From IMG/VR virus record IMGVR_UViG_3300025312_000144: a stretch of 39,447 nt of DNA. One strand, written 5' to 3'. The notes below the pieces were generated by a model. It worked only from the letters and a program-made list of their open reading frames with translations. It was not told the origin of the DNA and ran no database searches. The stretch is from a virus. Position 1 is the stretch's first letter. Each line of letters starts with the position of its first letter. Shown here in pieces: positions 7,251 to 39,447 of the stretch. The position numbers were made by a program, and so were the translations under genes.

Positions 7251-7313
7251 TGGCGGGTGAGAAGCCGGCTAAGACGGCGGGGGTGCGGTCTTATAACCTG
7301 CCGACTCTCACCC
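7251..7313 (-). ncRNA. extended hairpin RNA ending in G-CCA (unclassified)
   Basis: On the minus RNA, GGGTGAGA(7313..7306)/TCTCACCC(7262..7255) stacks on GUCGGC/GCCGGC and UAAGAC/GUCUUA. The U-G wobble on the minus RNA is a C-A mismatch on the plus RNA. The 3' side is followed by GCCA. 38 of 60 bases are G+C over 7251..7310. Confidence 0.4.
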
Positions 7314-7322
7314 ATAAGAAAG

Positions 7323-7583
7323 CTACCCCACCGACTCTATTCGGGCGATAGCAGTTTCCAAGCCAATTTCTCCTCCTCTATATTCGGAGACGGTAGCGAT
7401 AACAAAATCTGCGTAAGCTCGCGCCTCCGGATAGGACTCGACCAAATCCCGATAGCAAGCGTAGAGGCCGTTAGCCAGAACACGCTCGCCGACCAGAGAT
7501 TTGTCCACCAAAGGTGTGTCAAGTACGAGTAGGTAGTGGACAGCCACGCAGCATACTCGTCGCAGCAACTCTTGGTAGTCAAT
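7323..7583 (-). CDS. hypothetical protein (about 81-86 aa) in a G+C-rich segment; start codon uncertain (ATT 7583 or TTG 7568)
   Basis: Of three overlapping open frames, only this one has G-rich first and A/T-rich second codon positions. GGGAG lies 9 nt upstream of the ATT at 7583. No in-frame ATG lies near the 5' end. Confidence 0.5.
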   Translation of the reverse strand: MDYQELLRRVCCVAVHYLLVLDTPLVDKSLVGERVLANGLYACYRDLVESYPEARAYADFVIATVSEYRGGEIGLETAIARIESVG

Positions 7584-7589
7584 GACTGC

Positions 7590-7733
7590 TCACTCCCTTC
7601 TATTTTTTAAGTAACTATTTATTAGGTCTCTTATTAAAATTAAGGTATCTATTCGGCGCTTCTCGTCGTTCCAGAAGAACCTTAGATTTTCGATATACTT
7701 ATCTAAAAATACAGTAAAATCGTCATCCTCCAT
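7590..7733 (-). CDS. hypothetical protein (47 aa)
   Basis: Hand-translated MEDDDFTVFLDKYIENLRFFWNDEKRRIDTLILIRDLINSYLKNRRE. Overlaps the upstream gene end by 11 nt. Confidence 0.5.
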   Translation of the reverse strand: MEDDDFTVFLDKYIENLRFFWNDEKRRIDTLILIRDLINSYLKNRRE

Positions 7734-11649: not shown

Positions 11650-12573
11650 TTAGTTGTGTCCTATTATTATCATCTTAGAACCAGCCGTTAGAGTTGCTCC
11701 GCCTCCTGTATTTACAATATGAACTGCGGTAATAAGCGTACTGGCTCCCGAAACCCACTTACCGGCTACGTCGTCTTTACCAGGAGCGTTGGCAGCACCG
11801 CCAGAACCTGAGTGTACGACCGTTCCAGTAACTACTTTTTCGTCACTATCAATTAAATTCTGAACTAAGTAGTTTAGTATTTCTCTAGTTCCGCTCGTAG
11901 ACTCCGCCGGTATACCGGTAGTGCTACCAAGTGTAGTATCGGCCGCTCCGTTAACCGACTTTCTCCAAGAGTAATTAGCTCCACTATCGTTGTTAAATCT
12001 TAGAGTTAGTATCTTGGTAGCCGACTCGTTATCTAAGAATATAACTTGTAAAACTTTTCTACTTGGGTAACTTTCAATCGAGATATTAGACGGTGTACCT
12101 TCTTTTAATTCACACATAGCTAAAGTCCAGGGGCTTAGATTTCTTCTATCATAGACAACTGTAATTCCAGTACCATCGGTTGTTATATAGGCAATTCTAA
12201 TATGGTTAGTTGCTAAAGCCGGTACGTTAGAAAAAGCAGTACCCTCGTTATAATCTATGGTTCCGTCAGTCCCTAAATCGACAGCCGTAAATTTAGAAGC
12301 GGTAAAGGCGTGGGCTGAAACGGCGGAAGCAGTTATCCTCTTACCGCTTATATAAGCAACGATACTCGTCATAGAGCCGTTTAGACTGGCTCCTAAACTA
12401 TCGGCAGACCAGACGCCACCGGAAGCTACAAAATCGTTAAGCGTCTCGCTTCTAAAAAGCTCTAGTTTATTATTATTTACATCCTCCGAACCGTCGGACA
12501 AGCCGTCGTGAGTCGCCTTGTGTTCGGTCGGGTCTATTATTTGGTCTATCGAGTAAGTTGGGCCTCCACTCAT
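11650..12573 (-). CDS. tail fibre / receptor-binding protein, paralog 1
   Basis: See paralog 2. Lies directly downstream of the Tal-like gene. Confidence 0.6.
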   Translation of the reverse strand: MSGGPTYSIDQIIDPTEHKATHDGLSDGSEDVNNNKLELFRSETLNDFVASGGVWSADSLGASLNGSMTSIVAYISGKRITASAVSAHAFTASKFTAVDLGTDGTIDYNEGTAFSNVPALATNHIRIAYITTDGTGITVVYDRRNLSPWTLAMCELKEGTPSNISIESYPSRKVLQVIFLDNESATKILTLRFNNDSGANYSWRKSVNGAADTTLGSTTGIPAESTSGTREILNYLVQNLIDSDEKVVTGTVVHSGSGGAANAPGKDDVAGKWVSGASTLITAVHIVNTGGGATLTAGSKMIIIGHN

Positions 12574-18206: not shown

Positions 18207-18749
18207 CTAGCTTACGTTGGTTATACCAATGTGGCCAAATCTGCGGCCATCTCCGTAAGTTTCGTCTATCAGCGCTTTGAACGTTACCTTAAAAATTCTC
18301 TGATTGTCAACCTCGTAGTTCATCTCTACGCTAGATATAGGAACAGCTTTGTAAATAACGACATCTTCGTTAGTTACAGCGGCCGCGTCGGCTACTGGGT
18401 GAAGAACCAAAATCGCCGCCTTATTAGTCCTAAGACTATAACCGGCAGAGCGACCTAAGTTCACTCTATCGCCTTGCGAACCAGTGCTTAAATCGGAAGC
18501 ACCGATAGCCCGATTGAGGTTTCTTACACTAGGCTCGGCTAACGAAACTTCAATCTCTAGGCTCTCGCCTGTAAGTACCATATCTATCGGAGATGAGCCG
18601 TACTTATCGGCCGTAACGTCTGCGAAGTCAGGCTCGTAAACAAAGTTTACCCCTTCCTTGGTATTACCCAAGTTCACGGAGTTAAACACTATGTTCGAAA
18701 CCCCTATACGCAGGTTACGAATATCTGGCGACGTATAAAAGTCTGCCAT
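18207..18749 (-). CDS. major tail protein
   Basis: 180 aa directly upstream of the chaperone pair, with GGAGG-type SD (GAGGAGGTAAG) upstream. Call is by position and size. Confidence 0.6.
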   Translation of the reverse strand: MADFYTSPDIRNLRIGVSNIVFNSVNLGNTKEGVNFVYEPDFADVTADKYGSSPIDMVLTGESLEIEVSLAEPSVRNLNRAIGASDLSTGSQGDRVNLGRSAGYSLRTNKAAILVLHPVADAAAVTNEDVVIYKAVPISSVEMNYEVDNQRIFKVTFKALIDETYGDGRRFGHIGITNVS

Positions 18750-18763
18750 AACTTACCTCCTCA

Positions 18764-19153
18764 CTAAGATATTAGGTCAAGGTTTCGGTAAGTCAGTTCG
18801 AACGACGCTTTTAATAGTTTGCGGTCGTTCACGTCACTGTCCAAGTCATCTATCCGACCTAATGCCTTGATATTATATATCTGGTAATCTGGTAGAAAGA
18901 GAACGGCGTTACGGTGTAGAAGCTCGAATACTTGGTGTATTTTAGCGTCGGCCGCACCGTGGTCTTTATACCGCGCCCAGACGTCGATGGTCTGGTACTC
19001 GACCCCAGTATACTTATCAGGCTGGTTACTTGGTACTGATACCAACATAATAGCATCTTCTATATCTTCTGGCAACTCGCCGATAAAGATAGTAGTTCCG
19101 ACTACACCTATATTATTTTCTTCTAACCAATCCGCTAATTGAGAGGCTATCAT
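18764..19153 (-). CDS. tail completion / terminator-like protein
   Basis: 129 aa. Call is by position in the neck module. Confidence 0.45.
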   Translation of the reverse strand: MIASQLADWLEENNIGVVGTTIFIGELPEDIEDAIMLVSVPSNQPDKYTGVEYQTIDVWARYKDHGAADAKIHQVFELLHRNAVLFLPDYQIYNIKALGRIDDLDSDVNDRKLLKASFELTYRNLDLIS

Positions 19154-19509
19154 ATTCTTATAGTAGCAAAAGCCCTTCTAAAATACTCGTCCTTATTTCT
19201 TAATACCGCTTCGGCAGGGTCTCTTAAATATCTGCTTTTCCTGCCCTTCTTAAACCCGTGCGGCGGGGTTTCGAACTCCCACCTTCTAGCGTAAAGTGCG
19301 TCCGCCGGTGGGCCTTCTCCAAATCTAATCTCGTGGCGCATTAGTCCTAACCTTTTAACTCTACCGGTATTCTGTAGAGTACCCTTATCGTGCGGTACTT
19401 GTTGCTTAGAGCGACGTTCTATATCTAGCATCATTAACGCTATCGACTTATCTAACGCTAGAACGCTTTTTGCCTTATATTCTCTTGACTTATCGGTTAT
19501 TTTTATCAC
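19150..19509 (-). CDS. HK97 gp10-like neck/tail component
   Basis: 119 aa. QQVPHDKGTLQNTG resembles the vP.dTG.L motif of the gp10 family. Confidence 0.5.
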   Translation of the reverse strand: MIKITDKSREYKAKSVLALDKSIALMMLDIERRSKQQVPHDKGTLQNTGRVKRLGLMRHEIRFGEGPPADALYARRWEFETPPHGFKKGRKSRYLRDPAEAVLRNKDEYFRRAFATIRI

Positions 19510-19835
19510 GATATCAAATTAAACCTCTTTAGATAACACTTTAGAAACTCGACGTTATTTTCGAAAGTCCGCGACTTAACTATCCTCTCGACTCTAAAGG
19601 TCTCGTCGTCGGCGTTTAGTACGTCTCCTCTAGAAATATCCTCGCCAGGGTTAAACCAAGCGATAGCATCCGAGCCGGTTTCTTCCATATTGGCTCGACC
19701 ACTAAGAGTCGAAGTAATATATCTAAATCTGCCTATTAGAGTTTGGTTTAGGTTGGGGTTGTAGTTTATTAACTTACCATAACGGTCTACCCGCATCGCT
19801 ACTTTAACGATGCTTTGGTTCATTTCTGGTTTCAT
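19506..19835 (-). CDS. head closure / head-tail adaptor protein
   Basis: 109 aa. Call is by position and size between the connector and the gp10-like gene. Confidence 0.5.
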   Translation of the reverse strand: MKPEMNQSIVKVAMRVDRYGKLINYNPNLNQTLIGRFRYITSTLSGRANMEETGSDAIAWFNPGEDISRGDVLNADDETFRVERIVKSRTFENNVEFLKCYLKRFNLIS

Positions 19836-20636: not shown

Positions 20637-21938
20637 TTAGGATACTGTACCTGTTCCGATTAGCACGAAAGCCTCTGGGAATTGAACCAAGTTGTTAGCT
20701 CGGAACTCCGCCCTAAGAGCTTTAGCGTTCTGCTCGGCTAGGTTGACAGCATTAGCACCAGAGTCGTGAACTGTCGCCTCGGTAAGAGTGGTGAGGTTAA
20801 GTCCGGCTTTCCTAATAAGGGTGCTAAACTTCAAGTTCCCAAAGACAATGAAGGGTTCGTTTTCGTCACCCACTACATTGATATCGGGTAGAACTTCGAC
20901 TAACTCATAAGGATAGCCCCAGATAGTACCGGTGACTCCACCGTTTACCCCAGGTTGCCAAATGTAGTTATCGTTTTGGTCTTTAATTCTTTGAACTAAA
21001 CCAAGCAAGGTTCGGTGAAGGTAGAATTTAGCACCTACTAAAGCTCCTCCGTGAACCGTATAAATTGCTCTGTTTATATCATCGAAGTCAAGGTCGGCAA
21101 GAGCCGCACCTATAGTGACCGCGCCAGTACCGGCGGTACGTAGAATACCGCTAGTTGCGTCGGTAAAGACAAGAGTATCAATCAATCGGGCGCTTTCGAG
21201 GGCGAAGTCTTGGGTCAATTCGCTAAAGATATTGACTGCCGCATCTTCGTTTAGCTCGTCAGTTACGATTGCGATACCTGCAAACTTTCTCAAGTTTACG
21301 GTGTCTTGACCGAACGTCATCTTAGTTCCGGTCTTGGCAACGAGTTCGCCGGTTTCGTACATAGTTACTCCGCCAACTTTCTTGTTAAGAACAAGCGAGT
21401 TGGAACTAATAGTAACCGTTCTAGCGTCCCGCGCGGCTACTCCGTACACATCTTCAAGACGTGCAACTTCTGCGACGAAGTCTCGGTCAACTAGGAAACC
21501 ACCATCGGCGTTAGTAGTTTCGTTCTGATAGCCAGCTTTCTCTATTGCGTACTCGTTAAATCGCTTTAGAGTCGGTTGGTCATCTCGCATAAGAGCCTGA
21601 AGTCCTTTGAAGAACCTCACCTCTTTCGACATCTGTTCGATATCGGTTTTAACTTCTACAGTTGGAGTGTTAGCACCAATGTTTTTACTAACCACTGGCT
21701 CTATCTTCTCAACTGCTTTAGTTACGGCCTCGTCGACCTTTTTGGTAAGAACACCGGCAACTGAATTAGTAATCTTTTCCAAGGCATCCTCGGAAAGAAT
21801 TACCTCGTCGACAGTATCACCATCTTGGTCGTCTTTGGCTTTGGCCTCGGCTTCTAACGTTTCGAGTTCTTTTGCTTCCTCGTCGGTTAGAGTTTCGCCT
21901 TTAGCCTTTTTTTCTTGTAACTCTTTTAGTCTTTCCAT
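20637..21938 (-). CDS. major capsid protein, HK97 fold, with N-terminal scaffold-like delta domain
   Basis: The ATG at 21938 has GGAGG 6 nt upstream; the track start at 21950 is 4 codons earlier. Charged coiled N-terminus, then ...NADGGFLVDRDFVAEV... typical of HK97-family capsids. Confidence 0.8.
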   Translation of the reverse strand: MERLKELQEKKAKGETLTDEEAKELETLEAEAKAKDDQDGDTVDEVILSEDALEKITNSVAGVLTKKVDEAVTKAVEKIEPVVSKNIGANTPTVEVKTDIEQMSKEVRFFKGLQALMRDDQPTLKRFNEYAIEKAGYQNETTNADGGFLVDRDFVAEVARLEDVYGVAARDARTVTISSNSLVLNKKVGGVTMYETGELVAKTGTKMTFGQDTVNLRKFAGIAIVTDELNEDAAVNIFSELTQDFALESARLIDTLVFTDATSGILRTAGTGAVTIGAALADLDFDDINRAIYTVHGGALVGAKFYLHRTLLGLVQRIKDQNDNYIWQPGVNGGVTGTIWGYPYELVEVLPDINVVGDENEPFIVFGNLKFSTLIRKAGLNLTTLTEATVHDSGANAVNLAEQNAKALRAEFRANNLVQFPEAFVLIGTGTVS

Positions 21939-21950
21939 TATTACCTCCAT

Positions 21951-23132: not shown

Positions 23133-23330
23133 TTATTTAGTTTTCAGTACGATTTTATTATATTGACTTCTAGGCTTACTGTCAATAGCGAACGAGTCGC
23201 GCTGGCTAACTATATATAATCGATTGACTGCCTTACAACGGTGGCACTTAATCGAACCGACTGCGGTTGAGAATAATCCTAGCATACCGGCGCAGTTAAA
23301 ACAGCGAACGTCTGGGATATTTCTACTCAT
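23133..23330 (-). CDS. Com-like zinc-ribbon protein
   Basis: VRCFNCAGMLGLFSTAVGSIKCHRCKAVN fits the Mu Com pattern RC..C..L.......i.C.RCK..N. Confidence 0.5.
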   Translation of the reverse strand: MSRNIPDVRCFNCAGMLGLFSTAVGSIKCHRCKAVNRLYIVSQRDSFAIDSKPRSQYNKIVLKTK

Positions 23331-24987
23331 ATTGTACCTTTCCGCTTATAGAGTAAGGTTCGATAGTTATTATTCTATCAGAACCTAATTTACCTTGTAT
23401 ATAACTTACTTTAATTTCGGCCTCTATACCGCTTGCCTTAATCGCCAAATTGTAATTCTTTTCTAGGACAAACTTAGGATACCTAATCTTCTCGGATAGT
23501 AAGAAATACCTTAACGACTTAGTAATTTTAACTTCCCTAAATATCGAGTATTTAAGGGACTTAGTTATGGCGTTTTCTTTGAAGATATAATAGGTTAGCG
23601 ATTTAGTTATCGCTTGGTCGGTTAAGACTTCGTAAGTAAGACCTTTGGTTATAGATACCGTTCTAAAGATAACGTACCGAAGCGATTTGGTTATAGCGTT
23701 TTCTAAAGCGATGCTATAAGTAAGACTCTTGGTTATCGCTACACCCTCTATAAATATCCGGTAGGTTAGGGATTTAGTAATTGGGTTTTCGGTAATAACT
23801 GTATATTTAAGGTCTTTAGTTACAGATAGACCTTGGCCTTCAATAACGTAAGTTAAGTTTTTAGTAATCGTAACTTCGGCTAGAACTTTATAAACTAGCG
23901 TTTTGGTAATAGCTGTCTCTATAGATATATAGTAGGTTAGGCTCTTAGTAACTGCCGCCGGAGTAGTTATAATCGTGTATTTAAGACTCTTAGTAACCGA
24001 CTGCTCAGATAGAACTACGTATTTAAGAGACTTCGTTATAGAGGTGGGAACGACTACTATATATTCTAGGGATTTAGTTATCGCCGTATCGGTAATAATT
24101 CTGTAAGTTAGCGACTTAGTAAGGGTAGTATCGGTAAGAACCGTGTATTTTAGGCTCTTGGTTATTGCTTGCTCGCTAGTAACTATATAGGTAAGCGATT
24201 TCGTAACTGCAGTATCGGTAACTACCCGATAAGTTAAACTTTTAGTAACGGCATTATCTGTAATAACTTCGTAGGTAAGACTCTTAGTTATAGAGGTATC
24301 GGTAAGAACCGTATACTTTAGGGATTTTGTAATCGCGGTAGTAGTTACCTGCTCGAAACCGAAGTTAATCTGGTCGGTCTTTAGTTGGAACGGGGCTAAG
24401 ACCGCGTAGGTTAAAGACTTAGTAATTGCGTTTTCTTTTAGAACCTCGTAATTTAAGGATTTAGTAACCGATATTTCTTTAATTACTTTATAGGTAAGAG
24501 ATTTCTGAACAATTAAAAGGTAATAAACCTTAACTTGTATATGGTCAATGTTTAAGCGGTTAGTATCTCCTGTACCTAACTGAAGTCCTCTAAGTCTAAA
24601 GTTAGCATCGCTAAACTCGTCTCTTGTCCAGCTTCTACCCCAAGTATCTGCACTCCCACCATAGGTCTTATTATCATCCGGAGTAGCGCTAAAAGCGGTA
24701 GAGTCTTTAGCGGTAGAATATGTAGAGCCACCATCCCAAGAAAGAGCTAATCTTAATCTCCTATCATTGCCAGCCCCGTTTTGGGCGTGTCCCTCAACCG
24801 TAGCTTCAATACCTACGATTATCGCATTTGCAGGTAAAGCGCTGATAATATCAAAGGTAGAGTAAATTTCAAAAGCACCGTTACTAATAGTATCCGCATA
24901 AGCATCATCAGTAGCGTGGGCATTATCCGGAAGTGTCCAATGAGCCGCCGCATTCGCTGTAGGTGACTTAAATCCTGTATCAGCCAT
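23323..24987 (-). CDS. repeat protein B (554 aa): beta-sandwich-like N-domain plus 23 copies of a 14-aa TKSLxY repeat
   Basis: K-x-L motif counted at aa 162, 176, 190, then 221 through 490, mostly at 14-aa spacing. Its start overlaps the stop of the upstream repeat gene (TAATG). Confidence 0.85.
   Translation of the reverse strand: MADTGFKSPTANAAAHWTLPDNAHATDDAYADTISNGAFEIYSTFDIISALPANAIIVGIEATVEGHAQNGAGNDRRLRLALSWDGGSTYSTAKDSTAFSATPDDNKTYGGSADTWGRSWTRDEFSDANFRLRGLQLGTGDTNRLNIDHIQVKVYYLLIVQKSLTYKVIKEISVTKSLNYEVLKENAITKSLTYAVLAPFQLKTDQINFGFEQVTTTAITKSLKYTVLTDTSITKSLTYEVITDNAVTKSLTYRVVTDTAVTKSLTYIVTSEQAITKSLKYTVLTDTTLTKSLTYRIITDTAITKSLEYIVVVPTSITKSLKYVVLSEQSVTKSLKYTIITTPAAVTKSLTYYISIETAITKTLVYKVLAEVTITKNLTYVIEGQGLSVTKDLKYTVITENPITKSLTYRIFIEGVAITKSLTYSIALENAITKSLRYVIFRTVSITKGLTYEVLTDQAITKSLTYYIFKENAITKSLKYSIFREVKITKSLRYFLLSEKIRYPKFVLEKNYNLAIKASGIEAEIKVSYIQGKLGSDRIITIEPYSISGKVQYE
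23494..24516 (-). repeat. in-frame degenerate 42-nt tandem repeat array (23 units, one 19-aa interruption)
   Basis: Corresponds to aa 158..498 of repeat protein B. Boundaries are approximate. Confidence 0.8.
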
Positions 24988-27900
24988 TATGCGCCCTCCT
25001 GATAAACTCTAATCGTAACGTGATTATTAGCATCGTAGTAATCTCCAACGCCAACGGTTATAGAGCCGTCTAAATCGAAGTCGGTATCTGCTCCGGTAGT
25101 ATTATCGCTATCTAAGTTTTCCCAACTCGCTAAGGTATAGTTATAAATCTGTAAGTAAACTGTCGAAGTAGTAGGGGCAAGTTCGGTCTGCCCGTTCCAA
25201 TGTATATTTATATCGTCGGTGTCGTTATCGTGCCTATATCTATAATGGTGTATTGCAAATTCTACCCCTTCACCTTCTATAGCCACTCTTACCGCGTCAT
25301 CGGTCGCAACGTCTAGATAGTCTTGCGAAGAATACTGCGTTGCTAGAGGAGTTTCGTTGGCCGGTAGGCTCGCTTTGGCTTCCCTTGTATAAAAGGTTCT
25401 AGCTATAGCGTAAGTTAAACTCTTAGTAATAGCGGTATCGGTTATAACCTCGTAAGTTAGGTTTTTAGTAACCGCTACTTCTTTCAATACCCGATAAGTC
25501 AGGCTCTTAGTTATCGCAGTCTCTACCACAACGTGATAAGTTAAAGATTTAGTTAAACTATCGGTGGTTAAGACCCTATATTCTAGGGACTTAGTTACTG
25601 CCGACGGGGTAGTAAAGACCGTATATTTTAAGCTCTTAGTTACTGCCTGTTCCGAAACTACTATATAGGTAAGACTTTTGGTTACTGCCGTATCAGTTAC
25701 GACTCGATAAGTCAACGATTTAGTAATCGAGGTAGAAGTTAAGACCTCGTAATTAAGAGATTTAGTTATTACTATATCCGTTAGGATTTCGTAGGTAAGA
25801 GCTTTGGTTATAGCCGAGTCGGTAATAACTGTATATTTAAGAGATTTAGTAAGCGCTTCTGCTTGCTTAACCGTATACTTTAGGGATTTTGTAATCGCCT
25901 GTTCGCTGGTTACTATATAAGTAAGAGACTTCGTAATCGAACTATCTGTTAAGACGGTATATTTTAAGGACTTCTGTATTAGAACCGGCGCGGCGGCCTC
26001 AACCTCGTAGGTAAGAGACTTGGTAATAGAACTATCGGTTAGTACGCAATACTTTAGAGATTTAGTTATCGGCTGTTCTATAAAAACCCGATATTCTAGA
26101 GATTTAGTTACAGAGTCGGAAGTTAATACTGTGTATTTAAGAGATTTAGTAACTGCCGTATCCGTTAGAACCGTATATTTCAAAGACTTAGTAACAGACT
26201 GCTCGGAGGTAACTATATAAGTTAGGCTCTTTGTAACTGCTGTATCGGTTAGAACCCGATAGGTAAGAGATTTCGTAACCGCAGAAGGGGTTGTGATAAT
26301 TGTATATTTAAGAGATTTCGTAATCGCAGCGACTTCGGTAGTAACTGTATATTTAAGACTCTTTGTTACGGCGTTTTCTTTTAATACTCTGTAGGTGAGG
26401 GACTTCTGCACTGCGGTATCTGTTAAGACGGTATATTTTAGGCTTTTGGTAACCGCAATTTCTTTTAGAACGGTATATTTTAGTGATTTTTGGATTGTTT
26501 CTGTAGAAACCGCCGAACCTAAATTGTAAACTGTGAAGTTATCGGTGTCGTTGTCTGCATCCATATCATCGCCGGAATTTACCAATACCGTACCACCACC
26601 CCAAGCTAATCCTGCTTTGCCTGCGGCGGTTATATCGGTGTCTGTGGCAGAAGCTACTTCTACGCCATCTATATAGAATTTGAGAGCCGAGCCGATTATT
26701 TCTAATTTACAAATCGCACCGTTATAAGGTGGGGAAAAAGCAGAACCTAAAGTAGCCCAACCACCTGCCGTAGTTCTTTTATAAAGCTGGCAAGTATTAG
26801 TTCCGCCTTGGTCGTTTATGCGAACTGCGTACATATTATCTGCGTCCTGAACCCTTACCAAAGCGTATTGAGGAGAAGAAGTACCAGCATCCAAAATGCA
26901 CATTTCAAACTCAACTGCGTAATCAGCCGAGGGGTAGGTTGCGTCTGCGGTATAGATAACCCCATCATTCAAATCTCCTGCGGGACTGGCTCTATCTGTA
27001 GCCGCCATAGCGGAAGCCCCTGTACCTGCAGAACTGGCTAATCGTGTCCAGCTTGTTCCTATATCTGGGGTTTTGCTTTCAAGTGCGGTATTTGAGGAAA
27101 CTGCAAACTGGTCTCTAAAGACCATACTGGCGGTCTTTTCCCAATAACCAATGTAAGCCCACATCTGCGAAATCCAAACGTCAGGGGTTGCATCAGGAGC
27201 CGAGGCACCAATTTGTGCTCCGTCCCACATTGGAGGTGTCCAGCTTCCACCACCTTGAGGGTCGGTGTAGGAAACTAATTTGTATATTCTAGTAGCACCG
27301 GCAGTATCGTCGTGGGTATTAAAGCTGGCAGAAGCAATAGCGGTAGTAGTTCCTGTAACTGTAGTACCGCTTGCCTGAGATTTAATTCTAGGTAGCCAAG
27401 AACAGGCTGTTGCAGTTTCACCTCTTACCCTCGCACCAACCGCAACAAATCCAATTAAAGCGTCAGAAGGTAGCCCAATATCAGCACTACTCTGCATATT
27501 GTATTCGGGGGTTTCAGTAGTATCTATCTCAATATAATCGGCATCATCGTTGTCATTTATACTCGTGTAAAGTCCGGCGGTAGCGGCGTTGTCTCCTGCG
27601 GCGTTAGGCAAGGACATTACTAGCTTTATTCTATTAGGCCAGCTTTCAAAATCTGCTCCGTTTGCGTGGGTAACAATTACACAATCGTCAAAGTAAATTG
27701 TGGCTGTCTCTGCTCCCATAATCCCAATTTCGCTGTATCGGTGATTTGCACCGGCAGATATAGTCGCTCCTTCGGCTACCATAACTCCGTTGAGCTTCAA
27801 TTTAGCGTCGTTACCTCCGTGGGTGGTACCAACGTCAAGCTCAATGACATTTTCAAAGCTATCTAGGGTAATTGCAGGTGTATCTGAACCTAGTTGTACC

Positions 27901-28235
27901 GCCCCGCTATCGTCCCAAAGCTCCAAAGTACCATTTGAATTTATCCTTACCGAAGTATGGTCGCCGCCGCCGTCAGAAAGTTGGATTATTTTGGTAAGCC
28001 CAGAAGGTAAACCCCCTGTAGGAACGTAAATAGCGTACTGTCTAACAAAATCATCTGCGGTTTCGTTTGACTCCAGCCTTACCGATATTTCCGAGCCAGT
28101 AGAAGCAAATTTTAGGGAAGCCGCACCACTTCGTTTGATAGAAGTGTCGATTGTAGGTACACCGACTTTAGAATGTAACTCAACTGTGTCGGTTAAATCT
28201 TGTTTTTCAAACCCTGTTATATGAATTACCGACAT
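24987..28235 (-). CDS. repeat protein A (1082 aa): two ConA/LamG-like N-terminal domains, 26 copies of the 14-aa TKSLxY repeat, C-terminal beta-sandwich-like domain
   Basis: K-x-L motif counted at aa 583..938 with spacing 14 (occasionally 15-16). N-terminal segments such as GAASLKFASTGSEISV and YAVRINDQGG...LYKRTTAGGWATLG resemble lectin/glucanase-fold domains. Confidence 0.85.
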   Translation of the reverse strand: MSVIHITGFEKQDLTDTVELHSKVGVPTIDTSIKRSGAASLKFASTGSEISVRLESNETADDFVRQYAIYVPTGGLPSGLTKIIQLSDGGGDHTSVRINSNGTLELWDDSGAVQLGSDTPAITLDSFENVIELDVGTTHGGNDAKLKLNGVMVAEGATISAGANHRYSEIGIMGAETATIYFDDCVIVTHANGADFESWPNRIKLVMSLPNAAGDNAATAGLYTSINDNDDADYIEIDTTETPEYNMQSSADIGLPSDALIGFVAVGARVRGETATACSWLPRIKSQASGTTVTGTTTAIASASFNTHDDTAGATRIYKLVSYTDPQGGGSWTPPMWDGAQIGASAPDATPDVWISQMWAYIGYWEKTASMVFRDQFAVSSNTALESKTPDIGTSWTRLASSAGTGASAMAATDRASPAGDLNDGVIYTADATYPSADYAVEFEMCILDAGTSSPQYALVRVQDADNMYAVRINDQGGTNTCQLYKRTTAGGWATLGSAFSPPYNGAICKLEIIGSALKFYIDGVEVASATDTDITAAGKAGLAWGGGTVLVNSGDDMDADNDTDNFTVYNLGSAVSTETIQKSLKYTVLKEIAVTKSLKYTVLTDTAVQKSLTYRVLKENAVTKSLKYTVTTEVAAITKSLKYTIITTPSAVTKSLTYRVLTDTAVTKSLTYIVTSEQSVTKSLKYTVLTDTAVTKSLKYTVLTSDSVTKSLEYRVFIEQPITKSLKYCVLTDSSITKSLTYEVEAAAPVLIQKSLKYTVLTDSSITKSLTYIVTSEQAITKSLKYTVKQAEALTKSLKYTVITDSAITKALTYEILTDIVITKSLNYEVLTSTSITKSLTYRVVTDTAVTKSLTYIVVSEQAVTKSLKYTVFTTPSAVTKSLEYRVLTTDSLTKSLTYHVVVETAITKSLTYRVLKEVAVTKNLTYEVITDTAITKSLTYAIARTFYTREAKASLPANETPLATQYSSQDYLDVATDDAVRVAIEGEGVEFAIHHYRYRHDNDTDDINIHWNGQTELAPTTSTVYLQIYNYTLASWENLDSDNTTGADTDFDLDGSITVGVGDYYDANNHVTIRVYQEGA
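25398..26501 (-). repeat. in-frame degenerate 42-nt tandem repeat array (26 units)
   Basis: Corresponds to aa 579..946 of repeat protein A. The codon for E579 was checked at 26501. Confidence 0.8.
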
Positions 28236-34133: not shown

Positions 34134-34208
34134 TGGAGCGTCAGGGTCGGTATCGCACCGCCTTCTCTAGCTTGGAAAGCCAGCGTCTTACTTTTAGACG
34201 ACTGACGC
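34134..34208 (-). tRNA. tRNA-Gly(UCC)-like gene with encoded CCA and non-canonical D and T loops
   Basis: Hand fold of the minus strand. Acceptor GCGTCAG/CTGACGC (7 bp) and U8. D stem GUCU/AGAC with loop AAAAGUA. Anticodon stem CUGGC/GCUAG (one G-U) with loop UU-UCC-AA. T arm GGCGG-UGCGAUA-CCGAC (one G-A mismatch, one extra C). Discriminator U, then CCA. Confidence 0.5.
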
Positions 34209-34849
34209 TAGTTAATCTCTTTAAGATAAGGTTTTCTAAATTTCTCTACTAACTCTTTTAAGCTAGGTTCTAACGGCATTAGGTATTTATACTTACGCTT
34301 TATTATTACTTTCTCTACTTCGCTATCTATATTTTTCCTAATCCAGTCTAGGCTATGAGTATTATACCTCTTACCGATTGTTCTAGTTTGATATACAACC
34401 CCTCTTAATTTAATTAAGTTAGCTTGTCCGGCTCTACCCATAAAAACCCAATTACCCGCTTGGTATATCTTACCTAAGTGTCCGTAATTAGGGTCGGAGA
34501 AAGAAACTACTAACTTAATTCCTTTGTTAGCTTTTTTTAATAAATTAAGCGCTATCGAAACTATTTTAGTAACTGCCGCTTCGTGCGTTCTCAAAGCTAT
34601 TCTAGTCAACTCGCAGATTTCGGTTTGCTTTAACCCGAACGGCCTACCTATATTTCTACTAGCTCCTCGGCTAAATATAACTACCCCAATAAATTTATTA
34701 TTTTCCCAGACTCCTATTCTTACCGACTTACCGTAAGGCATCGATTTAGAATAATGCCAATTTTCTACCGCGTATTTAGCCGCTTGGAACGTGCAGAAAT
34801 CAAGGTGTAAATTTCGCTCCGCATTCGGGACATTCAACTTCTTTTGCAT
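34208..34849 (-). CDS. Mom-like (GNAT-fold) putative DNA-modification protein
   Basis: AAKYAVENWHYSKSMPYGKSVRIGVWENNKFIGVVIFS...ELTRIAL...VVSFSDPNYGHLGKIYQAGNWVFMG fits, from memory, the pattern of the Mom adenine-methylcarbamoylation family. Not verified by search. Confidence 0.45.
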   Translation of the reverse strand: MQKKLNVPNAERNLHLDFCTFQAAKYAVENWHYSKSMPYGKSVRIGVWENNKFIGVVIFSRGASRNIGRPFGLKQTEICELTRIALRTHEAAVTKIVSIALNLLKKANKGIKLVVSFSDPNYGHLGKIYQAGNWVFMGRAGQANLIKLRGVVYQTRTIGKRYNTHSLDWIRKNIDSEVEKVIIKRKYKYLMPLEPSLKELVEKFRKPYLKEIN

Positions 34850-35297
34850 CGAATTTGTCTAATAAAGCCTCGTTACCGGTAGGCGAGAAATTATCTAGTA
34901 ATTCTTGTAAGTTTACCGCTTTACTTAAATCAACTTTATAATCTTCTAGGTTTATTTTAACGCCGTTAATTAACTCGGCTAAGTCTGTATCGATATAATA
35001 TCCGGCGCGGTCGTTATCGCTAATAGCTATTTCTATTTTTTCTTCTTCGGTTTTTACGTTTACTATACTAACCCAAACATCCTCAATCCCTAAATCCTGT
35101 AAAATTCTTAGACGCATATTTCCGCCTAAGACTTCGCCGTCCGGAGTTATAACTAAAGGTTTATAAAGATACTCGCCGGTTATTTCTTTAATCCTTGTAA
35201 ATTGTCTTTTTAGCCGCTCGAAGTCGTCTTTAGTTATCGCTCTAGGGTTCTTGTCCCAATTCCTTAATTTAGATATATGCCAGATAGTTTTTTCCAT
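34800..35297 (-). CDS. ParB N-terminal (ParB/Srx-like) domain protein with C-terminal zinc ribbon
   Basis: WDKNPRAITKDDFERLKRQF...PLVITPDGEVLGGNMRLRIL matches the ParB-like nuclease domain core. The C-terminus is ECPECGAKF. Confidence 0.65.
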   Translation of the reverse strand: MEKTIWHISKLRNWDKNPRAITKDDFERLKRQFTRIKEITGEYLYKPLVITPDGEVLGGNMRLRILQDLGIEDVWVSIVNVKTEEEKIEIAISDNDRAGYYIDTDLAELINGVKINLEDYKVDLSKAVNLQELLDNFSPTGNEALLDKFDAKEVECPECGAKFTP

Positions 35298-35545
35298 CAG
35301 CTTATTTTAGAGTTTCCTTTATCCGGTAGCTTATCGGTAACCATTATATTTCCGTATTCTATCTCGCCTTTTATTAAGTCTACTTTTTCGACTTTATTCT
35401 TTAACATACCGACCCTCTGGCGTTCGACCATTAGGATAACGTCCCAGTCTATATTTATTCGGTTTACCGCCCGTTCGTGGAACTCTTTGTCGTGCTGTAG
35501 GTCTAGCATCGTTTGTAGGTTTCTCTTTTCGATTGAAAATTTCAT
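35297..35545 (-). CDS. hypothetical protein (82 aa)
   Basis: Track ORF, translationally coupled on both sides. Confidence 0.55.
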   Translation of the reverse strand: MKFSIEKRNLQTMLDLQHDKEFHERAVNRINIDWDVILMVERQRVGMLKNKVEKVDLIKGEIEYGNIMVTDKLPDKGNSKIS

Positions 35546-36351
35546 TTTATATGGTAAGGCTGTAATTGCCAGCCGTTTTTATCTTTTTTCCAGACTACGC
35601 TTACTATTTTACCATCTACCAGTAAATCTTGCTTCGGGGTTATATGTATAGTTTTAATTGTCCAATTAACGTAGGCTTTATAACCTTCTTTTAGAACGTC
35701 CATAACGTAGCAAACGTCTGGGCCGAAGCACTCCGCGAAGAACCGATATTTTATATTCTGATATAAATAGGCTAGGGTTAGATAACAATAGAAACCGCCG
35801 CCTGTAATAGGTTCTAGACTCTCATATTTAGGCGGCTCTAAAGTCTTTTGTATAGTCGGGTTTCTTAAATCGTCTACTTTCCAAACTCCGGCCATTTTAA
35901 TTCCGTGCCTACCAACCTGTACCCCTTCTATATAGCCGACATTGTAATCTAGTTGGAAGTCGTCGTACATCTTACGAAAGGCGTTCGGAGGAACTAAAGT
36001 ATCATCCTCGATACCGAAAACGTAGCTACCCTTAATATCTTTTTTACTTCGTTCTTTCATTTCGATTATCCGGTTGCGTTGTATCGAAATCCTAGTATTA
36101 GTCGGGGCAGGATTTCCGCTAATTAAGATTTTAGAGCCGTTAAATTTATCTTTCCGTTCTTCTAAGAAGGCGGTCGTCCTATTGATTATATTCTGATTAT
36201 CAGTATCTATATAAAAATAAACTTCCGTGCCGAGCCAAGGCATTTCTAAGTTATCTAAACTAGGTAAAAACCTATCTAGCGCCCACTCTCTAGTTAGCGG
36301 TACGAAAACGGTTACAAGCGGCTTTTCCGACGGTTTTATTACTTTAAGCAT
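35542..36351 (-). CDS. glycosyltransferase, GT-A fold (family 2-like)
   Basis: N-terminal VTVFVPLTREWALDRFLPSL and a DxD-like GIEDDTLVPPNAF. Confidence 0.6.
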   Translation of the reverse strand: MLKVIKPSEKPLVTVFVPLTREWALDRFLPSLDNLEMPWLGTEVYFYIDTDNQNIINRTTAFLEERKDKFNGSKILISGNPAPTNTRISIQRNRIIEMKERSKKDIKGSYVFGIEDDTLVPPNAFRKMYDDFQLDYNVGYIEGVQVGRHGIKMAGVWKVDDLRNPTIQKTLEPPKYESLEPITGGGFYCYLTLAYLYQNIKYRFFAECFGPDVCYVMDVLKEGYKAYVNWTIKTIHITPKQDLLVDGKIVSVVWKKDKNGWQLQPYHIK

Positions 36352-37388
36352 TGTTCGAAAGTATCTAGGTAAACTTGCCTCATTTTATTCCAAGAAAGTC
36401 TTTCGGCTATTTCGTTAGATTTTTCGCTTAATCTTTCGACTAACTTATCGTCGCTCGCTAATTGGTCTATCTTATCCGCTAATACTTGAGGTTTAGTCTG
36501 GTGGCTTGGCATATGCATCCTAGTAAAAAGCATTTTTCTACTATCAGTATTTATTAAGGACTCGGCCTCTAGTATCTCGTTCTGGGGCGGTAAGTTAGTC
36601 ATTATCGGTACTAGGCCGCGAGATAAGCTCTCTTGTAGCTGTAAGGATAAGCCGCCGTATTTTCTAGGTAGAAGTAGACAATCATACTCTCCGACGTAAT
36701 TTTCCCAATAGTTCTCTACTTCTCGGTCGTCTATTCTAGTATTAAAAGGGCTAGGGTTTTCTATATAAAACTGCGACTTAATAATAAACTCGACGTTTTT
36801 ACTTTTAACTAGAGGTATAGCTTCCAGAACTATATCCGTTCCGTTCCGATTATCCTCAGTCTTATGGCCGGCGATATGTAAAAATCTTCTAGCTTTAGTC
36901 TTTTTGGTAAAAGTTAGAACTTCTCTATTTATAGGTACGGGTAATTCGATAATCTTTACTTTATCGCTAAAGTTATTTCTAACATCGTCTAAATTCCAAT
37001 TAGTCGGCGCGGCTAGTACGTCTGGGAAAGCCCAGTCCGGCCTAACGAAATAATCTAGAAATTCGTAATTAAATTGGTTAATAGAGATGACACCTTTTTC
37101 TTTGGCTAGGGAAAATAATCTGTAAGAATAAGGAGACTCGATAGTAAATACTAAATCTATATCGGTTAGAAGCCAATTAAAATCTACTTCGTTAGGGAAG
37201 CCGTGTACAAACTTTACATTATCGCCGGTATACCATCGAGGATAGGTTTTAGCAATCTTACCTTTAGACTGATTAACCGCCGTTATATCTACAACTAAAG
37301 TTTTATCAGGTTTAATATGGTCGTAAAACTCTTTTGTTTGTACCCCAAGTCCCGTACTATCGCAACGGGCTACTAGACCAATTCTCAT
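36339..37388 (-). CDS. glycosyltransferase, GT-B fold (group 1 / GT4-like)
   Basis: C-terminal GGLSLQLQESLSRGLVPIMTN resembles the E-x7-E region of GT4 enzymes. Confidence 0.6.
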   Translation of the reverse strand: MRIGLVARCDSTGLGVQTKEFYDHIKPDKTLVVDITAVNQSKGKIAKTYPRWYTGDNVKFVHGFPNEVDFNWLLTDIDLVFTIESPYSYRLFSLAKEKGVISINQFNYEFLDYFVRPDWAFPDVLAAPTNWNLDDVRNNFSDKVKIIELPVPINREVLTFTKKTKARRFLHIAGHKTEDNRNGTDIVLEAIPLVKSKNVEFIIKSQFYIENPSPFNTRIDDREVENYWENYVGEYDCLLLPRKYGGLSLQLQESLSRGLVPIMTNLPPQNEILEAESLINTDSRKMLFTRMHMPSHQTKPQVLADKIDQLASDDKLVERLSEKSNEIAERLSWNKMRQVYLDTFEQCLK

Positions 37389-39028
37389 AAGTTTTTATAC
37401 ATCGGCTCACCGGCTCTCCCGTCTAAGTGGTAGCTTCTTTTCATATCTCCGCTCGGAGCGTAAACCATTATTTTCCAATCATTCCAGCCGGCCTTGCCCC
37501 TGTCCTTATAATCGCTAATTACTCTACCGTGAACCTTATCCTCTATAAAAGACTTCTCCTCCGGATTAAAATACTTATCTAGCGTTTTTATATAAAATTC
37601 GGTAGAGGCGAGGTGCGGTCGTTGCGACCACTGCGCCGTTCTAATTATGGGAACGTCGTTAATAGTTATCGGTTGCTCGTCTAGCATCAAATGCTTATGG
37701 TCGGGTAGTATAAGAGCCTCGTGGTGAAATCTAATTAAATTAGCGTCGCCCTCTAGAATAGTTTTCTGTAATGCCTCCCAAGGTATATATTCGCAGAGCG
37801 GCGTGTCGTGTTCTACAAAAAGAATAAGCGGAGTTTTAACATCTCTTAATACTTTTCTAGTCATACCGGACTGGTGGTTAAACTCGTCGAACATTACCGG
37901 AGTAACTTTTTTCCACTCGAAATTAGTTTTCCAAAGTATTCGTCTAATATACTCCTGATAATCATTATTACTCTCCTTTTGCTCCTCACGCACGCCGTCA
38001 ATCATTAAAATTATTTCCGAACCTGGCAGTTTATCTCTTACGCTTAAAATAGTTTCTTCTATAATCGAAGTATCGGGGTTAGACTTTATAGGCGAAGTTG
38101 GTATTAAAACTGTAATAAGGCCGTAATCCATTTTAGTTTTCGATAGATAACTAATATCTTCTTTTATATTATATTCTAGTTTCTTTTTATATTGTTGCCA
38201 CCAAGAGAAAACTCGATTATTAACGTTAGGATACCTGTCGTAATAGTTTACAAATACCCCTTTTAGCTTTTTCCAGTCCGTTAGAATAGGGAAAGGTAAA
38301 TCAGAAGAAGCAGAGTTAGTAAAAAGGTAACGCCAATAATTAGTAGCTTTCGCATTTTTAGGTATTTTATCATCTACGATAGGAACGCATCCAGCCTCTA
38401 AGGCTTCGTAGAAACGAAAGGTATCAGGAGTTTCCGGCCCAGAGGGGCAAATAGCTATCTTCGTTCTAGATAATAACTCGTAATAGTCTTTTCTACTTAA
38501 ACCCTCGGTAAACCTTTCAGTTTCGTTTAAGAACCCTTTATACTGCTCGTCCTCTAATAAAGCGTGCATAAACTTAGCGGCTAGTTTTCTTCGTTTATGA
38601 GTTATCTGTCCAGAAAAAGCCCAATCGTAGTCTTTCACTCCGTCGTTTTTGCCTATAAGTTCTCTAGCGTCCGGAGGCCAGCCATCGCCTAAATACCTGT
38701 CTGCTATTTTAGGTTTATGAAAGTCTGGGGTCATTTGATAAACTAATAAACGTTTGTGTTTTAGCTTATCTATCGGAAATACGTTTTCTTCGTCTCCGGC
38801 TAAAATAATTAAAACCCAATCTAGGTTTTTTATATCCTCGTTTATTTCGTCTACCTTATCAGAGTGGGAACGGGCAGGGATAATAACTATCGCTCCGCCG
38901 CTTTCGACCATTTTATCTTCGTGCCAGAACTCCTCGCCGGAGAATATATACTCTAAAAGACCCTCGTCCCAGTAACCCCGATTAGGAGTATCTTCTTTAT
39001 AGCTTTTCCAAACTACCGGTATTCTCAT
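37385..39028 (-). CDS. two-domain glycosyltransferase (exostosin-like N-domain plus GT-A C-domain)
   Basis: The N-half IAICPSGPETPDTFRFYEALEAGCVPIV is exostosin/GT47-like. The C-half LITVLIPTSP...ILMIDGV...LFVEHDTP is GT-A-like with a DxD-type motif. Confidence 0.6.
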   Translation of the reverse strand: MRIPVVWKSYKEDTPNRGYWDEGLLEYIFSGEEFWHEDKMVESGGAIVIIPARSHSDKVDEINEDIKNLDWVLIILAGDEENVFPIDKLKHKRLLVYQMTPDFHKPKIADRYLGDGWPPDARELIGKNDGVKDYDWAFSGQITHKRRKLAAKFMHALLEDEQYKGFLNETERFTEGLSRKDYYELLSRTKIAICPSGPETPDTFRFYEALEAGCVPIVDDKIPKNAKATNYWRYLFTNSASSDLPFPILTDWKKLKGVFVNYYDRYPNVNNRVFSWWQQYKKKLEYNIKEDISYLSKTKMDYGLITVLIPTSPIKSNPDTSIIEETILSVRDKLPGSEIILMIDGVREEQKESNNDYQEYIRRILWKTNFEWKKVTPVMFDEFNHQSGMTRKVLRDVKTPLILFVEHDTPLCEYIPWEALQKTILEGDANLIRFHHEALILPDHKHLMLDEQPITINDVPIIRTAQWSQRPHLASTEFYIKTLDKYFNPEEKSFIEDKVHGRVISDYKDRGKAGWNDWKIMVYAPSGDMKRSYHLDGRAGEPMYKNL

Positions 39029-39447
39029 AATCTAAATAATATATTAGCCTGATTAAAGTTCATATCGCCATTAAAAGGAGCGCCGTCTATAAAAGCCTTA
39101 TAGCCGACCTTAGTTAATTTATTATAGATTTCGGGATAACTATTATTAAAGACGGGGCTAAATTCTATAAATAAGTTATTAACTCTTTTAGCTAAAATTA
39201 AATCCCAAAGTTTCTCGATTGCGTAAACTTCGTTACCTTCTATATCAATTTTTACTAACTCTATATTACCGATTGCTAAACCGTAGTAGGGAGATTTAGC
39301 GTTAATCCATTCGTTTTTTACAGTAACCTTAGATGCTATAAGGTTCTCGGCTAAATTCTTATTTAATAAACTTAAGTTGTTTTTATCGCCGTCTATAGCT
39401 AAAACGCGGTAGCCTAGTTTAGCCGCTATTATCGTATACCAACCTAT
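39025..39447 (-). CDS. FkbM-family methyltransferase, C-terminal part (N-terminus at 342..1 across the junction)
   Basis: Hand-translated ...ENLIASKVTVKNEWINAKSPYYGLAIGNIELVKIDIEGNEVYAIEKLW...NILFRL. Its TGA overlaps the next ATG (ATGA). Bases 39349..39447 duplicate 1..99. Confidence 0.75.
   Translation of the reverse strand: MGWYTIIAAKLGYRVLAIDGDKNNLSLLNKNLAENLIASKVTVKNEWINAKSPYYGLAIGNIELVKIDIEGNEVYAIEKLWDLILAKRVNNLFIEFSPVFNNSYPEIYNKLTKVGYKAFIDGAPFNGDMNFNQANILFRL
39349..39447. repeat. 99-bp copy of the window start (1..99)
   Basis: See feature 1..99. Confidence 0.95.

Follow-up and report, generated by a model that had tools for sequence, protein, structure and literature searches.

To our knowledge, glycosylation of virions by virus-encoded enzymes has been shown only in giant algal viruses and in a few actinobacteriophages. 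In the chlorovirus PBCV-1, soluble multidomain viral glycosyltransferases (GTs) and methyltransferases build the methylated glycan of the capsid (PMC9614988). Cluster O mycobacteriophages use three GTs and an O-methyltransferase for modification of capsid and tail tube, and glycosylation of actinobacteriophage virions alters their recognition by antibodies (both as reported in PMC11600133). Here, we describe an island of GT and methyltransferase genes in a phage sequence, IMG/VR virus record IMGVR_UViG_3300025312_000144, which is 39,447 nucleotides (nt) long and is called the window below. Judged from gene order and sequence comparison, the island is one copy of a conserved, horizontally mobile cassette that is not peculiar to this genome. 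Viral sets of GTs and methyltransferases that make methylated glycans are already known as a kind. What is new here is an exostosin-like two-domain hallmark enzyme, in a compact unit of four to five GT domains and as many as three methyltransferases that moves between unrelated phage backbones and is abundant in metagenomes. Our literature search found no paper joining phage, exostosin, and FkbM, and none describing the cassette.

The island consists of eight contiguous minus-strand genes that run from position 2836 to 1 and then from 39348 to 35542. It encodes five GT domains and three methyltransferases, as assigned by Pfam and NCBIfam together with two AlphaFold models (predicted local distance difference test [pLDDT] scores of 90.3 and 93.8). 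Window bases 1-99 are identical to 39349-39447. These identical ends indicate a circular assembly with a true genome length of 39,348 bp, of which the island occupies 6,643 bp (2836 + 3807), or 16.9%. The 99-bp duplication lies inside the methyltransferase gene at the junction of the two ends and reflects assembly overlap in a genome that is circular or circularly permuted; the gene itself has no such repeat. Once the duplicate is removed, the junction gene encodes 221 amino acids (aa) versus 254 aa with it. An independent 37.6-kb Joint Genome Institute metagenome contig (L001 in our set of compared loci) reads without interruption across the junction and contains the same uninterrupted 221-aa gene, and several ENA contigs, one of them from the Rifle aquifer, also carry the junction genes contiguously. 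The junction gene overlaps the 547-aa GT gene by 4 nt, and the overlaps among the three genes of 35542-39028 are 13 and 4 nt. An earlier note made from the sequence alone had counted the same eight domains in about 6.6 kb (one sixth of the genome), had read the three overlapping genes as a GT-A enzyme, a GT4-like enzyme, and an exostosin-like plus GT-A enzyme, and had carried the operon through an FkbM-like junction gene. All of this agrees with our assignments, and the 99-bp duplication is the sole correction. In the direction of reading, the island genes are as follows (all on the minus strand).

1907-2836, minus: 309-aa CgeB-like GT-B enzyme, first cassette gene (Glyco_trans_1_2 PF13524, E = 1.6e-23; phrog_28745 glycosyltransferase, E = 8.7e-34)
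1734-1910, minus: 58-aa open reading frame (ORF) between the CgeB-like GT and FkbM genes, also called in L001-L005
984-1730, minus: 248-aa FkbM methyltransferase, core (PF05050, 40.7 bits, cut-off 22.7; TIGR01444, 37.3 bits, cut-off 37.7)
314-997, minus: 227-aa class I S-adenosylmethionine (SAM)-dependent methyltransferase, accessory (Methyltransf_25/11/12, E = 2e-17 to 2e-13)
1-342, minus: N-terminal part of the 221-aa FkbM-family junction methyltransferase (PF05050, 30.4 bits; TIGR01444, 39.7 bits, cut-off 37.7)
39025-39447, minus: C-terminal part of the junction methyltransferase, with 39349-39447 duplicating 1-99
37385-39028, minus: 547-aa two-domain GT, cassette signature gene (N-terminal GT47/RXYLT1-like GT-B domain and C-terminal GT-A domain)
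36339-37388, minus: 349-aa GT4-like GT-B enzyme, core (PF00534, 25.2 bits, cut-off 26.4; PF13692, 21.3 bits, cut-off 27; phrog_2170)
35542-36351, minus: 269-aa GT-A enzyme, frequent accessory (AlphaFold2 model with a pLDDT of 93.8, GT-A fold, E-D-D-T [DxD] motif)

The N-terminal half of the 547-aa GT matches RXYLT1_C PF24785 (45.9 bits, cut-off 27) and, below the cut-off, Exostosin_GT47 PF03016 (30.6 bits, cut-off 33.4). Its AlphaFold2 model (pLDDT, 90.3) gave a full-length Foldseek alignment to human EXT1/EXT2 (E = 1.8e-11) and also aligned to EXTL3, while the C-terminal half aligned to the GT-A enzymes ppGalNAc-T2, RmlT, TarS, and SpsA. Residues E406 and D408 are invariant (motif FVEHDTPL), and one homologue carries PF00535. 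Sequence-only searches of the PDB were uninformative for this protein, the 269-aa protein, and the 269-aa profile, so that structure prediction was needed; a Pfam scan at E values up to 10 returned nothing for the isolated C-terminal domain or for the 269-aa protein, which had no PHROG match either. The model of the 269-aa protein matched COLGALT1 (E = 7.9e-12), LH3, Mimivirus R699, TarP, STIV A197, and SpsA. Its residues D116-D117-T118 are invariant and E115 nearly so, and it has only 13 close homologues, with relatives at 24 to 35% identity in about half of the cassette loci. For the window sequence taken alone, the assignment to GT4 is the least certain (a PHROG glycosyltransferase family is matched with an E value of 1.6e-7), yet it appears to be supported by its orthologues: a profile of eight of them matches Gtf1 (4pqg) and MshA (7qsg) with an E value of 7e-4, and the L007 orthologue clears the cut-off of Glyco_trans_1_4 PF13692 (32.4 versus 27 bits).

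The island proteins are soluble. None has a hydrophobic or membrane-spanning segment (maximum Kyte-Doolittle 19-residue mean below 1.0; 0.74 for the 547-aa GT). Family annotation found no priming phosphoglycosyl transferase, flippase, polymerase, or ligase in the genome. Together, these results indicate that a lipid-linked export pathway is not encoded. The cassette contains no nucleotide-sugar genes. As the earlier note had stated, there is no integrase in the window. Every ORF of at least 300 aa is accounted for, and the features of Gtr-type or prophage TarP-type lysogenic conversion (an integrase and membrane-embedded GtrA/GtrB/Gtr(type) proteins) were found in neither the window nor the island.

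Homologues of the 547-aa GT are widespread. There were 1,383 at an E value of ≤1e-3 in a 90%-clustered database, and the best 120 of these were nearly all full length, with 43 to 57% identity, many on 30- to 40-kb contigs. The corresponding profile gave 3,620 matches to 50%-identity cluster representatives at E ≤1e-3 and 714 at E ≤1e-30. In a tblastn search of 50,697 GenBank phage records, there were none. The common core order is the CgeB-like GT, the FkbM methyltransferase, often a second FkbM-like methyltransferase, the two-domain GT, and the GT4-like GT, which is followed in about half of the loci by a GT-A enzyme of the 269-aa type. This order, with 35 to 60% identity, is kept across unrelated phages. 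Orthologues of the CgeB-like GT (32 to 65% identity) are found in nearly all cassette loci, and those of the 248-aa FkbM methyltransferase (25 to 61%) in most. Species genomes of GTDB yielded 28 cassette loci, among which are prophage-like regions of Nocardia asiatica, N. pulmonis, and Nocardia sp. NPDC056564 that have a host-like GC content of 65 to 69% and adjoin capsid or portal-MuF genes. A tblastn matrix showed the core genes wherever a contig reaches far enough, with the CgeB-like GT in 21 and the GT4-like GT in 24 of the 28 genome loci. The contigs with the cassette were binned as actinobacterial, Candidate Phyla Radiation (CPR), Firmicutes, and proteobacterial. To treat the island as a feature of one genome, as had been done before, is thus incomplete: the same core in many unrelated phages changes what needs explaining.

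The surroundings of the cassette differ between phages. In siphoviruses of similar backbone (L007/L015, L013, and L020; the 35- to 40-kb class), it lies directly upstream of the terminase genes, and in L014, a 39-kb SU10/P22-like podovirus, it has the major capsid gene on one side and the head-tail adaptor on the other. In three phages of 77 to 104 kb (L011, L045, and L046), it adjoins genes for RNA ligase, polynucleotide kinase-phosphatase, and peptidyl-tRNA hydrolase, and a 236-kb contig with the cassette encodes DNA polymerase III alpha, ribonucleotide reductase, ThyX, DnaB, and three extra GT2 proteins. Genes also come and go within the cassette. The class I methyltransferase is a variable insertion, with orthologues outside the window phage in L013, L024, and L028 only. 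A Fic-domain gene stands between the two-domain GT and GT4 genes in L007 (4278-5000) and L013 (11700-12437), an HNH gene is inserted in L011, and DUF4417 is inserted in L022. A SAM synthetase gene lies immediately upstream of the cassette in L013 (5639-6625). The tblastn matrix revealed no conserved nonenzymatic partner gene, and the 58-aa ORF of the island had no tblastn match outside the window phage.

Two side observations concern these loci. The tRNA-repair-type module that follows the cassette in L011, L045, and L046 (at about 11.5 to 19 kb in each locus) also includes an RlaP nucleotidyltransferase, and in L011 and L045 a metallophosphatase. L020 is QQBJ01000015.1, a 151-kb scaffold labelled Mycolicibacterium moriokaense DSM 44221, whose phage region has 50% GC and contains Replic_Relax and ArdC-like genes. 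A GC content of 50% seems too low for a Mycolicibacterium genome. L020 is likely a contaminant or foreign element, and we do not use it as host evidence for a mycobacterial prophage.

The cassette can be compared with several groups of described enzymes. Like the cassette, PBCV-1 (A064R, A061L, A075L, and A111/114R) has soluble, cytoplasmic, multidomain GTs and SAM methyltransferases that are independent of host secretory glycosylation (PMC9614988), and the profile of the 547-aa family weakly matches the exostosin-like A075L (E = 0.028). In contrast to the window phage, PBCV-1 is a giant virus of a eukaryotic alga, and its enzymes are nonorthologous save for this weak GT47 similarity. Its characterized methyltransferases are of class I, with FkbM unmentioned (PMC9614988), and its genes are dispersed rather than gathered in a compact mobile cassette. 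Mycobacteriophages (Che8, Corndog/cluster O, and Myrna) have tandem GT genes beside an O-methyltransferase gene, and capsid and tail-tube subunits are modified (PMC11600133 and PMC12619734); their sets as described there are smaller, with two or three GTs. By gene content alone, the window phage resembles this type, having GTs and methyltransferases without lysogenic-conversion machinery. No homology to mycobacteriophages was detectable with the 547-aa GT, which had no GenBank phage match, or with the CgeB-like GT, whose 10 tblastn matches (27 to 35% identity) were to nine phages of Streptomyces and an unannotated faecal “Bacteriophage sp.” fragment. In Streptomyces phages Dryad (L008), Yara, and their relatives, a CgeB-like GT (27 to 31% identity) is likewise followed by a methyltransferase; in Dryad (genes 33-36), the pair is immediately preceded by the gene of a 1206-aa hypothetical protein and by the lysis cassette. 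Unlike the cassette, these phages have one GT and one methyltransferase and lack the two-domain GT, the GT4 enzyme, and the second FkbM gene. The Dryad pair may be a minimal analogue in cultured phages.

Human EXT1, EXT2, and EXTL3, which join a GT47 GT-B domain to a GT64 GT-A domain, have the same domain order and folds as the 547-aa GT. They are the best whole-length structural matches of its model (E = 1.8e-11 to 7e-9) and have a sequence motif in common with it around residues 177-218. The likeness is distant: identity is 10 to 12%, the domain orientation differs (TM-score of ∼0.3, root mean square deviation of ∼20 Å), the phage enzyme has no type II/transmembrane anchor, and there is no sign in it of heparan-type polymerase activity.

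The explanation that we favor, while stopping short of calling it probable, is that phage-made proteins, probably those of the virion, are glycosylated in the cytoplasm with a methylated oligosaccharide. The soluble enzymes would work in the cytoplasm of the infected cell, using host nucleotide sugars and SAM. Four to five GT domains (the CgeB-like GT-B, the GT47 and GT-A domains of one protein, the GT4-like GT-B, and the extra GT-A) would make a short oligosaccharide stepwise, and two FkbM-type methyltransferases and one of class I would O-methylate it. Each addition would take place directly on phage-made proteins (exposed virion proteins being the most probable ones), either ahead of virion assembly or in its course, and would leave them with a coat of methylated glycan like that of chlorovirus capsids and some mycobacteriophages.

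We favor this explanation because of the combination of five GT domains with three methyltransferases, FkbM membership being supported, because the island proteins are soluble and no lipid-linked export pathway accompanies them, and because of the precedents in PBCV-1 and cluster O mycobacteriophages. The conservation of the cassette across unrelated backbones, on contigs binned with different phyla, points to a phage-intrinsic or universal acceptor rather than to the surface polymer of one host, and its position in or beside head and packaging genes (L014, the window, L013, L015, L020, N. asiatica, and N. pulmonis) argues for a virion target. The SAM synthetase beside the cassette in L013 is consistent with heavy methylation, and where there is no hydroxylated-base pathway, DNA as the acceptor would lack its prerequisite. 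From this we infer that the acceptor is protein, that virion proteins are targeted, that sugars are O-methylated, and that the glycan has a shielding or adsorption role. The earlier note had arrived at the same general idea, which stands as the best fit; its choice of substrates does not, as described below.

Several points weigh against glycosylation of virion proteins. In the 77- to 104-kb phages and the 236-kb contig, the cassette lies amid tRNA-repair or replication genes, not structural ones. The host phyla come from metagenome binning, which is weak evidence and makes the argument from many host phyla a soft one. Lipid-linked host precursors at the inner membrane face are another possible substrate of soluble GTs and are used by TarP and RmlT, both structural neighbors of the island enzymes, and the GT and LamG genes of groundwater CPR phages have been interpreted as modifying the host surface (PMC11310336 and PMC12911398).

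Modification of host surface glycans is accordingly the main rival, although we consider it unlikely. Here, the soluble enzymes would extend and methylate host glycan intermediates or polymers at the cytoplasmic membrane face, and the host would export the product. Possible targets are teichoic-acid-like polymers, S-layer or pilus glycans, and lipid-linked precursors; the effects would be superinfection exclusion, progeny kept from adsorbing to debris, or a change in how an episymbiotic host adheres. The structural neighbors of both GT-A domains fit this proposal, since they include the wall-teichoic-acid enzymes TarP (prophage encoded), TarS, and RmlT. So do the presence of some cassette copies in Nocardia prophages, the nonstructural position of the cassette in the larger phages, and the published reading of CPR-phage GTs and LamG proteins just cited. 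However, the window phage has no integrase that we could find and no membrane-spanning segment, priming transferase, flippase, or ligase. One conserved set of four to five enzymes would have to suit the differing envelope chemistries of the actinobacterial, CPR, Firmicutes, and proteobacterial groups with which the contigs are binned, and the cassette lies within the head module of L014 and beside head genes in several other phages.

It is improbable, more so than envelope remodelling, that the acceptor is a nonstructural protein, an RNA, or a small molecule, as in a takeover of the host by glycosylation of its factors or the neutralization of an antiphage metabolite, with the glycan not on the virion. 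The consistent association of the cassette with RNA ligase, polynucleotide kinase-phosphatase, peptidyl-tRNA hydrolase, and nucleotidyltransferase genes in the 77- to 104-kb phages would suit such a role, as would the Fic-domain gene within the cassette in L007 and L013, and Gtf1, the best solved relative of the GT4-like profile, acts on a soluble protein. On the other hand, four to five GT domains with methyltransferases are elaborate for inactivating a single target, no conserved nonenzymatic partner gene accompanies the cassette, and head genes adjoin it in several lineages.

DNA as the acceptor has to be considered because of the genes that lie next to the island in the window.

35297-35545, minus: 82-aa ORF between the island and the ParB-like gene, with no family match, found in the window phage only
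34800-35297, minus: 165-aa protein with a ParB-like nuclease domain (phrog_620, phrog_498, and phrog_940, E = 1e-14 to 1e-16)
34208-34849, minus: 213-aa protein of the Mom family of DNA adenine modification (PF25680, E = 1.1e-43, 149.7 bits, cut-off 27.1, positions 2-200 of 202)

The Mom homologue is 0.7 kb from the island on its downstream side, with the ParB-like gene before it and the DUF5681 and terminase genes after it, and it implies, as far as family membership can, adenine modification of the window phage DNA. Relatives of the ParB-like protein adjoin the cassette in L024, L038, and L040. Among the compared loci, tblastn with Mom matched only the window phage's own contigs; no other cassette locus has it. 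Beside the cassette of L007, a C5 cytosine methylase takes the slot of Mom, which suggests that this slot holds interchangeable antirestriction genes that are independent of the cassette. Searches with Pfam and PHROG found no maker of hydroxylated bases in the window (thymidylate-synthase-family hydroxymethylase/5hoC synthase or 5mYOX/TET-JBP dioxygenase), although very divergent dioxygenases are conceivable among the small unannotated ORFs; Pfam found no deazapurine pathway genes in the window, and no hydroxylated-base-generating enzyme was found in L007. As a side observation, a tRNA-like element lies just downstream of Mom (34138-34208, minus strand; Rfam tRNA, 31.6 bits, gathering cut-off 29, E = 0.007), which ARAGORN does not call. 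By eye, it has an acceptor stem GCGTCAG/CTGACGC followed by TCCA and an anticodon loop TTTCCAA that could be Gly-UCC.

In DNA hypermodification, the GTs would put a methylated glycan on phage DNA bases and so block restriction. For the window phage, a possible acceptor is the acetamido group added to adenine by Mom, and the ParB-like protein could help to target DNA before packaging. Consistent with such a mechanism, the stretch from the island to the terminase genes carries both a ParB-like gene and the full-length Mom homologue, and L007 has a C5 cytosine methylase at the equivalent position. Phage GT-A and GT-B enzymes related to teichoic-acid and lipopolysaccharide (LPS) enzymes do glycosylate 5-hydroxymethylcytosine in DNA and are often encoded near ParB-like and terminase genes (bioRxiv 10.1101/2023.12.21.572611), and a ParB-like protein activates a phage thymine dioxygenase (PMC13229309). 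The sugar-hypermodification clusters of phage DNA (Pyle et al.) resemble the island in these GTs and neighbors. They differ from it in their defining generator of a hydroxylated base, which we did not find in the window, and FkbM and exostosin-like enzymes are unmentioned there. In known DNA glycosylation, the acceptor has to be a hydroxylated base, the product of a thymidylate-synthase homologue or of a 5mYOX/TET enzyme (bioRxiv 10.1101/2023.12.21.572611). With that prerequisite found in neither the window nor L007, Mom confined to the window phage while dozens of Mom-less loci conserve the cassette, an antirestriction slot whose interchangeability suggests independence from the cassette, and no paper in our literature search tying FkbM to DNA glycosylation, DNA hypermodification is very improbable. 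Coupling of Mom to the GTs as a general mechanism, including N-glycosylation of the acetamido group, is rejected because Mom is absent from all other cassette loci. The earlier note had dismissed DNA glycosylation because it saw no hydroxymethyl-pyrimidine or deazapurine genes; we likewise found no thymidylate-synthase-like, TET/JBP-like, or deazapurine gene. Its inventory was incomplete, since the full-length Mom was overlooked, and its conclusion stands because there is no hydroxylated-base pathway and the other cassette loci have no Mom.

The glycosylation of virion proteins had originally been proposed with two repeat giants of the window (23323-28235) as the substrates.

24987-28235, minus: 1082-aa repeat protein with LamG-like domains (Laminin_G_3) and phrog_14065 on its N-terminal domain
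23323-24987, minus: 554-aa paralogous repeat protein (from its translation)

In the giants, LamG-like domains are followed by more than 20 copies of a ∼15-residue “ITKSLxYxV” (YTV-like) repeat. In about 130 homologues of the 554-aa protein, similar repeats are joined to LamG, amidase_2, GH18, GH8, peptidase M14, and Pfam YTV domains; the “TKSLxYxV” repeat is a modular stalk. L047 (10001-12505) and L048 (10001-11743) have a homologous repeat protein between capsid and head-tail connector genes, a position that suggests possible capsid fibers or decoration. The giants are rejected as the cognate substrates because their co-occurrence with the cassette across metagenomic relatives, the check that the earlier note had itself proposed, fails in both directions. 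L013, L015, and L020 carry the cassette and have no repeat protein between portal and capsid, while L047 and L048 carry the repeats and have no cassette gene within 22 kb, L048 also lacking the cassette at its usual site upstream of the terminase. Furthermore, a regular-expression scan of L001-L015 found the repeat motif in the window only, and tblastn with both repeat proteins matched no other cassette locus. The giants may still be glycosylated in the window phage, and nothing singles them out.

A different feature of the virion proteins provides a lead on acceptors rather than evidence for glycosylation. In the window, the capsid protein (20637-21950), two connectors (19506-19835 and 18764-19153), and the tail tube (18207-18749) each have a C-terminal -[IV]-Ser. 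The ending is also found on five virion proteins of L015 (13207-14469, 15308-15634, 15999-16424, 16464-17003, and 19673-20041), with a distal-tail protein among the classes affected. The ending occurs in 14 of 437 ORFs overall, mostly virion proteins of these two phages, far above chance, and because the Ser codons differ, it is a feature at the protein level. Mycobacteriophage glycans have been placed at the C termini of capsid and tail-tube subunits (as summarized in PMC12619734). The capsid C-terminal serine as an acceptor mark linked to the cassette is weakened by an Oceanotoga phage, whose major capsid protein also ends in serine; no GT is annotated in the 12.9-kb stretch of it that we viewed, and neither cassette query (the CgeB-like GT and the 547-aa GT) matched it.

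The remainder of the window genome is consistently oriented, with all genes on the minus strand and a GC content of ∼41%. Its blocks, in the direction of reading, are as follows.

First block, minus: small early genes, including a PD-(D/E)XK exonuclease and an HNH/NinG-like nuclease
Second block, minus: the glycosyltransferase/methyltransferase island
Third block, minus: the 82-aa ORF, the ParB-like protein, the Mom homologue, and a DUF5681 protein
Fourth block, minus: large terminase and a portal-MuF fusion
Fifth block, minus: five small ORFs and then the two repeat giants
Sixth block, minus: prohead protease and HK97-type capsid protein
Seventh block, minus: connectors, tail tube, tape measure, and tail proteins
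Last block, minus: holin-like ORFs and a CHAP+LysM endolysin

No GenBank phage matched 30000-39447 by Megablast, and tblastn with the capsid protein against the same phages gave two distant matches and nothing else. From these searches and the tblastn with the 547-aa GT, the phage has no close cultured relative. A single-sequence portal search in IMG/VR also found no relatives. The cassette loci L035 and L040 are backbone relatives (portal identity of 31 to 35%) that were binned as Moranbacteria and Saccharibacteria, and the cassette-less backbone relative L048 (portal, 33%; capsid, 31%) was binned as Minisyncoccia. Complete genomes of groundwater CPR phages are 36 to 55 kb long, with a mean of 39 kb (PMC11310336). 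A CPR/Patescibacteria host is plausible for the window phage because its backbone relatives are CPR binned and the reported CPR-phage genome sizes are similar to its own.

Some further observations were made on the window. A scan for promoters and terminators gave the same counts as a shuffled sequence, so it supports no inference on expression timing. A region of ∼1.6 kb (6013-7590) contains only short doubtful ORFs and may be a regulatory or origin region; a 16-nt direct repeat (copies at 6917 and 7070) and several imperfect inverted repeats lie in it, as does one strong promoter-like match on the plus strand (6975-7004). Two adjacent genes on the minus strand (10740-11648 and 11650-12573) encode ∼300-aa proteins with a common N terminus (..PTY..IDPTEH..TH.GL.DGS..NNKLE.FRSE..) and divergent C termini. 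They had no family matches and look like paralogous tail-fiber or receptor-binding proteins.

If virion proteins are indeed the target, a further step would follow that we regard as possible and hold more tentatively than the glycosylation itself. The cassette would be a self-contained mobile module for a virion glycan coat, in which one enzyme set puts the same methylated oligosaccharide on virions of unrelated tailed phages whose hosts apparently belong to several phyla, including CPR/Patescibacteria. It would be the first virion-glycosylation system outside the actinobacteriophages and the first found as a transferable unit. The signature enzyme is present in hundreds of distinct metagenome lineages and in none of the sequenced isolate phages, and glycan-coated virions would then be common among environmental phages and have been missed by culture collections. 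Because culturable Nocardia strains have prophages with copies of the cassette, the question is within reach of bench testing. A coat of this kind would bear on adsorption, virion stability, and recognition by immune systems and grazers, as well as on the annotation of “auxiliary metabolic” GT genes.

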